Virus record (IMG/VR): IMGVR_UViG_2531839554_000008
DNA length: 14,441 nt
Reading direction: 5' to 3' (one strand)
Source: a virus
Lineage: Duplodnaviria > Heunggongvirae > Uroviricota > Caudoviricetes
Made by a program: the position numbers and the translations under genes. Each line of letters begins with the position of its first letter. Position 1 is the stretch's first letter. The notes under the pieces are model-generated. The model saw only the letters and a list, made by a program, of their open reading frames with translations. It was not told the origin of the DNA and searched no databases. Shown here in pieces: positions 10,324 to 11,170 of this stretch.

Positions 10324-10343
10324 CCCGTTGATTCTTCCAGAAT

Positions 10344-10401
10344 CCCCCATTGGGGGAGGCTGGGCGGCCTGCTGTGGGCTTTTCCACCATTGGTGGAAAA
10401 G
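10344..10401. repeat. CCATTGG-centred palindromes (CCCCCATTGGGGG at 10344-10356; CTTTTCCACCATTGGTGGAAAAG at 10379-10401)
   Basis: Perfect inverted-repeat arms (5 bp and 10 bp) around an ATT centre; the second reappears at 11089-11110. Confidence 0.7.
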
Positions 10402-10797
10402 TGGCGCGACTACAGGGCTGGATCATCAATATGGTGACGCAGCAACAGAGTGACCATTAGTCACCTTGTTCTAACTCGCTGTATTCGTTTAATTTCCACC
10501 AACTGCGGAAATTGAGAAACTCACCCGCCAGACCCTGAATAGTGAAAATCGCTATGCAGCTTCATGTGTCCATTTCCCCGAAACAGGAAAACCCGTTTTC
10601 GGGAGAAGGTGCGATCATGTTCGTCATACCTGTTCCGTTGAAACGGAATACCCGATTCCGGCGTAGCTGGTGGACGCACAGCCACATACAACTAACTTTG
10701 CGCGTCAGTATTGCTGACCCGCAAACAACAACCCGGCAACAGAACGTTACCCGATTCAGCCGTTCGATGGCATCACTGGACCCACTTTCCTGATGCG

Positions 10798-10953
10798 TTT
10801 GCGGGTTATTTGGGGGGTGTTTGCGGGTTATTTTGAATGTCTTGCGGGTTACGTTTTGGCTAATATTCAAACATGTCATTTTTTAACGTATTGATATTAA
10901 AGAATAAAAAATACTTAGCACGCGAAGATAACCCGCTAACCCGCATAACCCGC
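10798..10953. repeat. iteron array with inverted arms: 3x TGCGGGTTA (21-22-bp phasing), a 77-bp AT-rich spacer, then 3x TAACCCGC (8-9-bp tandem)
   Basis: TGCGGGTTA at 10800, 10822, 10843; TAACCCGC at 10929, 10937, 10946; AT-rich 10852-10928; followed by GTATATATATAC (10961-10974). Confidence 0.75.
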
Positions 10954-11088
10954 ACTGTTTTGTATATATATACGAAAAATTGCATTCAGGAGGGGGATCG
11001 AAATTCCTGCAATCCATTACTTATGGAACTATCCGCCCCGTCAAATTTTTACACCCGCGAAATTAAAAAAATGCGTTGCGCTGGTGGG

Positions 11089-11110
11089 CTTTTCCACCAT
11101 TGGTGGGAAA
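11089..11110. repeat. second copy of the TTCCACCATTGGTGG palindrome
   Basis: TGGGCTTTTCCACCATTGGTGG is shared between 10375-10396 and 11085-11106. Confidence 0.7.
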
Positions 11111-11170
11111 CATGGCACCACATCCACCAGCTTGATAACGGATAGCCGGAAAACGATAACGATTAAAGCG

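Follow-up and report, generated by a model that had tools for sequence, protein, structure and literature searches.

A gene-free right end of an Escherichia coli phage-inducible chromosomal island as a probable mosaic of an orphan origin unit and a phage-type cos site

What does a phage satellite keep in a right end that appears to encode nothing? The question is raised by 847 nt (positions 10324-11170) of a window of 14,441 nt, the window being the whole stretch of DNA that was analysed. It covers the cspD–clpS interval of an E. coli chromosome, which is occupied by a 10.8-kb Gram-negative phage-inducible chromosomal island (PICI). An earlier note, made from the letters alone, had described the 847 nt as a non-coding, dyad-rich stretch at the right end of a satellite, and this description is borne out. 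Among the three functions that it offered (a structured non-coding RNA locus, a decayed or very small cargo module, a cluster of regulator binding sites) the last comes closest, although the sites in question are iterons, a terminase cos and the adjoining attP arm. That note lacked the two most informative features, namely iterons with the core GCGGGTTA on either side of an AT-rich spacer and a segment homologous to a phage cos site. The stretch is likely to be a cis-acting right-end trailer of the island, a mosaic of DNA signals and not a gene, in which an orphan origin unit of the DUF927 type stands next to a cos of the HK97/phiP27 type. Sequence comparison supports the identity of this module well, and from it we infer what the module may do in the island. 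Read from left to right, the order would be a trailer with a CCATTGG palindrome as in the island EcCICFT073, a conserved block, the origin-type unit, the cos, and a duplicated palindrome with the start of the P arm.

The origin-type unit occupies positions 10797-10953. The core GCGGGTTA is present in six perfect copies, against 0.45 expected in the whole window. Three direct iterons, GTTTGCGGGTTAT, lie on the plus strand at 10797-10851, with cores starting at 10801, 10823 and 10844 (spacing 22 and 21 nt). They are followed by a 76-nt AT-rich spacer (10852-10927, 27.6% GC) that is conserved in all copies of the module and is presumed to be the melting region. It contains a single match to the consensus of integration host factor (IHF), TATCAATACGTTA, on the minus strand at 10884-10896. 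Three inverted iterons, TAACCCGC, come next on the minus strand (10928-10953; starts 10929, 10937 and 10946, spacing 8 and 9 nt), and the TA-rich tract CACTGTTTTGTATATATATACGAAAAATTG (10954-10985, 22% GC) marks the end of the homology to origin units elsewhere. The homology to the copy in L012, the PICI of strain C 237-04 at the same clpS site, stops within this tract. In L012 a unit 88% identical to that of the window sits in the origin slot, directly after the DUF927 primase gene. The unit is likewise found directly 3′ of the initiator gene in L018, L031-L036 and similar loci.

The relation between iteron and initiator was assessed in 160 islands selected by their primase protein, not by the module. 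Where the DUF927 protein is at least 83% identical to the reference, at least five copies of GCGGGTTA lie within 260 nt downstream of the gene in 38 of 38 loci. The same arrangement is found at 0 of 42 loci with DUF927 proteins at most 78% identical and at 0 of 80 loci with D5-type primases. At least three copies of CTGTCTAC are present in 37 of the 80 D5-type loci with enough downstream sequence. The GCGGGTTA iteron therefore tracks one initiator clade, and the copy in the window is heterologous. It is also an orphan, since no DUF927 gene occurs in the window and the D5-type primase has an origin of its own built on CTGTCTAC.

This resident origin (5749-5990, plus strand) follows the D5-type primase gene immediately and carries two kinds of iteron, CTGTCTAC and GGTAGAC. 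Position and iteron are as in EcCICFT073, the prototype Gram-negative PICI, whose pri-ori segment was shown in a plasmid maintenance assay to drive replication (PMC6092414). The primase-adjacent slot of the island is thus filled by CTGTCTAC iterons, and the right-end unit lies about 5 kb downstream of the primase gene. The combination of three direct iterons, AT-rich spacer and three inverted iterons is paralogous to the primase-adjacent cluster, of which it represents a second copy in inverted orientation. A second unit is carried by 26 of the 38 islands of the clade with at least 83% identity (in 12 of them it adjoins the first cluster, in the other 14 it lies at the far right), by 0 of the 42 islands with DUF927 proteins at most 78% identical, and by 2 of 81 D5-type islands, the window being one of them. 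Two inverted origin-like units, adjacent or up to about 8 kb apart, can be seen in L003, L010, L011 and L012, PICIs whose DUF927 primases belong to the GCGGGTTA clade; in L010, for example, they lie at 3815-3930 and 12047-12192.

Directly after the TA-rich tract begins a well-supported candidate cos site (10986-11072) of the type known from phiP27, SfI and phiE125, which would have a 10-nt 3′ cohesive end and belong to the type read by HNH-dependent terminases. Its left flank (10986-11029, plus strand) aligns to the spacer between HNH and terS of phiP27, GGGAGGGGCGGGTCAAATCCCTGCAACCC, and to other PICI right ends. This flank includes AGGAGGGGG (10988-10996), which had been taken for a strong orphan Shine-Dalgarno sequence. 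That interpretation does not hold, as the motif is matched in the alignment by GGGAGGGGC, a part of the left cos flank of phiP27; the alignment to the phiP27 spacer extends over about 85 nt, GGGAGGGGC included. The 10-nt equivalent of the cohesive end, TATCCGCCCC (11030-11039, plus strand), aligns to the feature annotated as "cos-site" in phiP27, and the right flank GTCAAATTTTTACACCCGCGAAATTAAAAA (11040-11072, plus strand) is homologous to phiP27, phi1026b and phiE125. Positions 11033-11069 are identical to phiP27 at 37 of 37 nt, across the annotated "cos-site". Positions 11040-11069 match nucleotides 1-30 of the genome records of the Burkholderia cos phages phi1026b and phiE125. These records begin at the base right after the 10-mer and have terS at +46, so that the gene starts about 45 nt on, as it does in phiP27.

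The 10-mer itself is TATCCGCCCC in the window, CGCCCGCCCC at the cos-site annotated in the phiP27 record and TGCCCGCCCC in SfI (PMC3636060), and phages of the phiE125 family have a 10-base 3′ extension, CGCCCGCTTC (PMC2920897). The bases CCGC at positions 4-7 are common to all four. Other copies of the module carry the exact 10-mer of phiP27 or SfI, and the last inverted iteron and the 10-mer are a nearly constant 83-89 nt apart, measured from start to start. Genes for HNH, a P27-type (Terminase_4) TerS and TerL are absent from the island, and the cos would therefore need to be used in trans. A degraded island beside tRNA-Pro in strain 2017-02-1CC (L005 6001-6250, proL/yejO) has only an integrase fragment and a cos-like segment left, the latter 94.7% identical to positions 10957-11089 of the window.

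The island also holds packaging signals of another kind. An 85-nt direct repeat resembling the cos of lambda and mEp460 is found on the plus strand at 9262-9346, upstream of a gene for a DUF1441 protein that is similar to TerS, with a second copy at 6728-6812. The two copies are 96% identical and contain the cosN-like sequence GGGCGGGAGCG(T/G). They align to both lambda-type cosN regions of EcCICFT073, and they match the termini and the regions upstream of terS of lambdoid phages similar to mEp460 and phi458. These repeats are probably the native cos sites of the island. As they are of the lambda type, the cos in the right-end stretch represents a second type. A lambda-type cos (GGGCGGCGACCT) was also sought within the stretch itself; the only match, at 10362, has three mismatches and is at chance level. 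A sequence search of the PDB with two neighbouring proteins for relatives of Rpp or TerS returned ankyrin noise only. Fillol-Salom et al. (2019) have asked why some PICIs possess two different cos sites (PMC6739421).

How did a heterologous module reach this position? All 847 nt are 98.5% identical to the right end of L037, a capsid-forming PICI (cf-PICI), and 89.5% identical, end to end, to that of cf-PICI L023. Parts of the stretch are also present at the right end of islands located at thiM, ygeQ and proL/yejO and inside prophage terL genes. Matches to parts of the module are found in 338 of 5426 complete E. coli genomes, and 22 genomes contain at least 80% of it; a plasmid collection gave no match, nor did one genome per species searched with an invariant 26-mer. 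By these comparisons the right-end stretch shares recent ancestry with cf-PICI right ends. Nearly all D5-type siblings of the island have the last gene followed by short trailers that lack the module. L033 has the same integrase, AlpA, protease-capsid fusion and DUF1441 protein (97-99% identical) combined with a DUF927 replicon. EcCICFT073 has a single pair of the palindromes P1 and P2, described below, and there the sequences that flank the two copies in the window adjoin each other without interruption. In the window the module meets the CFT073-like trailer at a shared GTGGGC, which lies in the right palindrome copy, and positions 11072-11133 are identical to L003 4397-4458 at 62 of 62 nt. 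The stretch had been described as bracketed by copies of a CCATTGG-type palindrome. The two copies are real; bracketing is not a general feature of the module and is confined to the lineage of the window, L037 and L047. Since the right-hand palindrome is absent from the module copies in L023, L042 and L003, bracketing is a junction feature of the window lineage. Many cf-PICIs with the module are located inside prophage terL genes (L011, L014, L015, L017, L019, L021, L024, L030 and L040). The 3′ part of terL resumes about 300 nt past the module there, which fits the published configuration of helper-embedded satellites.

A course of events can be proposed from these parts. The module would have entered by a recent recombination with a DUF927-type PICI or a cf-PICI. 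The island would excise and replicate from its own origin. The HNH/TerS/TerL terminase of a helper similar to phiP27 or SfV could then nick at 11030-11039, and packaging would proceed rightwards over the att junction, providing a second packaging route beside the lambda/mEp460-type cos repeats and the DUF1441 TerS. The iteron unit would remain inert unless an initiator of the matching DUF927 clade were supplied in trans. Both the cleavage at 11030-11039 and the binding of an initiator to the iterons are predictions from the sequence.

Several observations weigh against a working signal module. The module may be redundant, given that an origin, cos-like repeats and a TerS-like gene already belong to the island. 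The 10-mer TATCCGCCCC, which cf-PICI L037 also carries, agrees with that of phiP27 at 7 of 10 and with that of SfI at 8 of 10 positions. Because the stretch is nearly identical to that of L037, the intactness of the sites is uninformative on selection. Strain BH100N, nearly identical to the strain of the window, matches the query once and contains neither a second copy nor a prophage with the identical 37-mer. The cf-PICIs hold another, diverged cos-like sequence in the syntenic spacer between HNH and terS, and the right-end cos is therefore accessory even in them. Finally, the CCATTGG palindromes and the block at 10596-10795 fall outside the proposed model. The cos-like sequences of L010 illustrate the duplication, with a diverged one at about 9440-9480 in the HNH-terS spacer and a phage-type one with the SfI 10-mer at 12279-12320, by the second iteron unit. 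A role of the right-end cos as the primary cos of cf-PICIs had been considered and was ruled out by the sequence in the syntenic spacer and by L112, which has the same terminase and is free of the module.

The main rival explanation concerns the function of the module and not its identity. The stretch would then be an origin unit and a cos that persist as an inert recombination scar, a recent passenger from a cf-PICI. This is a possibility to be taken seriously, if a doubtful one. The iterons are orphan in an island lacking DUF927, the combination is rare (2 of 81 D5-type islands), the stretch, at 98.5% identity to L037, has had no time to decay, the resident origin, cos and TerS are already in place, and BH100N offers the single match. 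An inert scar fits less well with the retention of the module at the right end of many different islands at an iteron-cos distance of 83-89 nt, or with 37 nt of right cos flank shared without a mismatch with a real phage, and the carriage of a helper cos is an established satellite strategy (10.1101/2022.09.08.507074).

At the other extreme, the module could be a portable mobilisation unit of origin plus cos, served by the DUF927 initiator of another satellite and by foreign HNH-dependent terminases. These terminases would come from phages similar to phiP27 and SfV or, possibly, from co-resident cf-PICIs. The island would be a satellite with two kinds of helper, one lambda/mEp460-type and one HK97-type, and in the extreme case it is possible that it parasitises other satellites. 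This proposal is unlikely.

An RNA-level function draws on the parts that the signal-module reading leaves aside, namely the palindromes and the conserved block. The stretch contains 13 inverted repeats whose arms are 6 nt or longer and whose loops do not exceed 6 nt; the expectation from 500 dinucleotide shuffles, none of which reaches 13, is 1.9 +/- 1.7. If arms of 9 nt or more are required, 3 remain where 0.03 would be expected. Equally long coding stretches of the window have 1-3 inverted repeats at the 6-nt limit. The dyads listed in the earlier note are all present, with only two slips of position. They include CCCCCATTGGGGG (10344-10356), CCACCATTGGTGG (10384 and 11094, within a 27-nt direct repeat), GTGAC-N5-GTCAC (10450-10464) and TTCCGTT-ga-AACGGAA (10633-10648). 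The element GAAAAC-cc-GTTTTC lies at 10587-10600 and not at 10586-10599, and the first copy of the 10-bp direct repeat TACCCGATTC is at 10649, not at 10640.

Palindrome P1 (TCCCCC-ATT-GGGGGA, 10343-10357) stands in the trailer after the last gene and is kept in EcCICFT073 (L002 12019) and in cf-PICI L009. Palindrome P2, CTTTTCCACC-ATT-GGTGGAAAAG (10379-10401), belongs to the left copy of the 27-nt repeat (10374-10400), and P2′ (CTTTTCCACCATTGGTGGGAAA) to the right copy (11084-11110); the two copies of the repeat are identical at 26 of 27 nt and are 710 nt apart. A decayed third palindrome copy, TTTCCACCAACTGCGGAAA (10493-10511), belongs to repeat family D1, and at its position L023 has a perfect CCACC-AAC-GGTGG. 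The palindromes are not canonical terminators because they lack U-tracts, and a terminator scan of the stretch gave two terminator-like matches at chance level. They probably form hairpins, in RNA or in DNA, where the late operon ends, or else act as linkers in recombination; they may also be remnants of mosaic Bro/Rha genes. The block at 10596-10795 contains TTCCGTTGAAACGGAA, two copies of TACCCGATTC and an open reading frame (ORF) of 59 amino acids (10617-10793) called by the annotation pipeline PGAP. It is highly conserved in L023, L042 and L003 and shows no coding constraint.

Could these elements act as RNA, in a structured non-coding locus or as part of a 3′ untranslated region? This is improbable. 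Palindrome arms vary in a compensatory way across loci (CCACC/GGTGG, CCCCC/GGGGG, CCACT/AGTGG) while the central triplets are free, the region 10310-10420 folds with a z-score of -3.3, and the conservation of the block at 10596-10795 is not accompanied by coding constraint, all of which would suit an RNA. Any palindrome, however, folds strongly, by construction and on either strand, and outside the palindromes the fold z-scores are unremarkable, with only -2.1 and -1.4 for 10590-10800. The Rfam covariance search called for in the earlier note gave no relevant match to the stretch at the gathering or a permissive threshold; at E-values up to 1 the sole match was a chance one to a plant miRNA over the iteron dyad. 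A promoter scan of the stretch found no promoter-like site. P2 is also part of real coding sequence in a phage: together with its flank (10359-10402) it is identical at 40 of 44 nt to part of the ant gene of Salmonella phage SSU5 (L204 901-944), and the minus strand encodes the same 15 residues, TFPPMVEKPTAGRPA. The ant gene of SSU5 contains there a perfect 19-nt palindrome within real coding sequence. The best-conserved elements of the stretch, moreover, are accounted for at the DNA level.

The GCGGGTTA repeats could alternatively be recognition sites for terminase, comparable to cosB, and not an origin unit. The fixed distance between unit and cos core in cf-PICIs and in the window would agree with this, as would the structure of lambda cosB, which consists of repeats around an IHF site (PMC6739421). 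The distribution of the unit makes such a role very improbable. Classic DUF927 PICIs have the unit in the origin slot with no cos after it, and in L012 the cos is at the far right, without a unit. The iteron tracks the DUF927 clade and not the terminase. L112 has a TerS 100% and a TerL 99% identical to those of L010, and yet no unit. Repeats of this kind are also missing from phiP27. The cosB interpretation was rejected on the placement in the origin slot, on L112 and on the tracking of the primase clade.

Coding potential comes last. The earlier statement that there is no convincing ORF stands, as no internal ORF has a Pfam or PHROGs match and the frames of 90 and 41 amino acids contain frameshifts in homologues. 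The suggested decayed or small cargo module finds no support in any ORF with homologues or coding constraint. Intactness of ORFs across homologues is uninformative here, the copies being too alike and both strands open, and the substitution pattern and frameshifts were used instead. A small accessory protein such as the 59-amino-acid product of 10617-10793 merits hardly any credence, for although PGAP calls it a "hypothetical protein" in BH100N, a GGGAGAAGG motif precedes its ATG and the frame is open in five homologues, it lacks a Pfam or PHROG match, differs from L023 by about 10 nonsynonymous and 2 synonymous changes with ATG replaced by ATA, is equally open on the opposite strand and is not annotated in L003 or L009.

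The limits of the stretch follow from the layout of the island. The window, which differs from strain BH100N at 4 of 14,441 positions, runs through cspD, yljB, the 10.8-kb island, clpS, clpA and the remnant of a CRISPR repeat. The attR crossover core ATGATAGTTATCTATCA is on the plus strand at 11308-11324, with the attL copy at 477-493. By comparison with the empty site of K-12, which runs uninterrupted through the core sequence, the core at both positions is ATGATAGTTAT(T/C)TATCA. The P-arm repeat at 11171-11239 (plus strand) comprises four TTGTTCG and two GGTGTAGTTAAT motifs and pairs with 572-640 upstream of the integrase gene int. GGTGTAGTTAATGGTGTAGT and the GGTGTAGTTAAT doublet also occur at either end of EcCICFT073, an island with a different integration site. 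These 69-nt terminal repeats (572-640 and 11171-11239) had been considered as the att core; a junction query built on them matched no genome. They are arm repeats internal to the island and not the crossover core, and are probably arm sites for integrase and excisionase. Because the att core maps beyond it and the 69-nt repeats are arm sites, 10324-11170 is the last non-coding stretch of the island, up to the start of the attP P arm. Its left boundary is strain-specific as a stop codon has been lost at 10267, where TAA has become GAA; the last island gene is thereby extended from 93 to 113 amino acids. In relatives this gene stops at 10269, and BH100N and CFT073 retain the stop.

The gene order of the island is that of EcCICFT073. 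It encodes a tyrosine integrase (int, 661-1899), AlpA, an Icd-like protein and a DUF4222 protein, a D5-type primase-helicase (3981-5735), a single-stranded DNA-binding protein (SSB), a fusion of ClpP protease and major capsid protein (7330-9243), the DUF1441 protein, which matches a PHROG terminase-small-subunit family with E = 4e-58, and a last small protein of phrog_1561. At 7330-9243 one ORF joins a ClpP-like prohead protease to a major capsid protein of the HK97 fold. Integrations into a CLP_protease late gene of a PICI are reported in the preprint on helper-embedded satellites. Downstream of clpA, at 14250-14397, two perfect CRISPR-DR4 (RF01317) repeats and one degenerate repeat with 60-nt spacing look like the remnant of a small E. 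coli CRISPR array.

The individual parts of the right end are of kinds already known: a PICI origin, a phage cos on a satellite and an attP arm. In the literature searched, no text was found that lists GCGGGTTA iterons or maps the cos of a cf-PICI. Nor was a fused cassette of origin unit and phage-type cos found described at the right ends of satellites, or such a cassette standing orphaned in an island whose replicon and packaging system are different. A dyad-rich tail that looked empty now has defined parts, and the annotation can be transferred, since many E. coli PICIs and cf-PICIs have the same module at the right end, either without annotation or with spurious "hypothetical protein" calls. 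It would appear that cis-acting signals for replication and packaging are exchanged between satellites as cassettes, irrespective of the proteins that recognise them. The island holds cos-like sites of two different phage families, which bears on the question posed by Fillol-Salom et al. in 2019. Should the borrowed cos work, the range of helpers, and hence the transfer of island genes, would be wider than the packaging genes of the island suggest. Should the orphan origin respond in trans, it would offer a route for interaction or competition among co-resident satellites.

Four known kinds of system, and the two cos sites of EcCICFT073, can be set beside this right end. Satellite P4 is said to use a two-site origin, ori plus crr, in work attributed to Flensburg and Calendar in 1987 and to Ziegelin et al. 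in 1993. The DUF927-type islands are alike in having a second cluster of the same iteron kilobases away, next to an att end, and two such clusters are met with in L003, L010 and L011. The window differs in that its own origin has CTGTCTAC and its right end GCGGGTTA iterons. With different iterons in the two clusters, a P4-like two-site origin cannot operate with the primase of the island.

PICI origins of the SaPI and EcCICFT073 type (PMC6092414) resemble the right-end unit in having two sets of short iterons around an AT-rich region. A homologous unit lies directly 3′ of the primase-helicase gene in related islands, and the iteron sequence covaries with the initiator clade. The unit of the window differs in being placed at the extreme right, with 5 kb between it and the primase gene, and its iteron matches neither the initiator of the island nor the CTGTCTAC of its own origin. 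In the parent lineage, moreover, the unit is the second, inverted origin copy. The cos1 and cos2 sites of EcCICFT073, with redirection by Rpp (PMC6739421), provide the precedent of a satellite with more than one helper-like cos sequence. They differ from the right-end cos in being of the lambda type (GGGCGGCGACCT) and in lying upstream of the last genes; their counterparts in the window are at 6728 and 9262.

Homology of the window to the HK97-like, HNH-dependent cos phages (phiP27, SfI/SfV, phiE125/phi1026b) runs across the cohesive end mapped in them. Over 37 nt the right flank does not differ from phiP27, and the physical genome end coincides. The site in the window differs from phiP27 in the first three bases of the 10-mer. 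It is also an orphan with no adjoining HNH, P27-type TerS or TerL, and its flank is followed by a palindrome and attP, not by terS. The fourth kind is that of the cf-PICIs (10.1101/2022.09.08.507074). The island of the window lacks their portal, HNH, P27 TerS and TerL and has only the protease-capsid fusion and the DUF1441 TerS-like gene, whereas its last 847 non-coding nucleotides are 98.5% identical to the right end of a cf-PICI, the group of islands in which the module is common.

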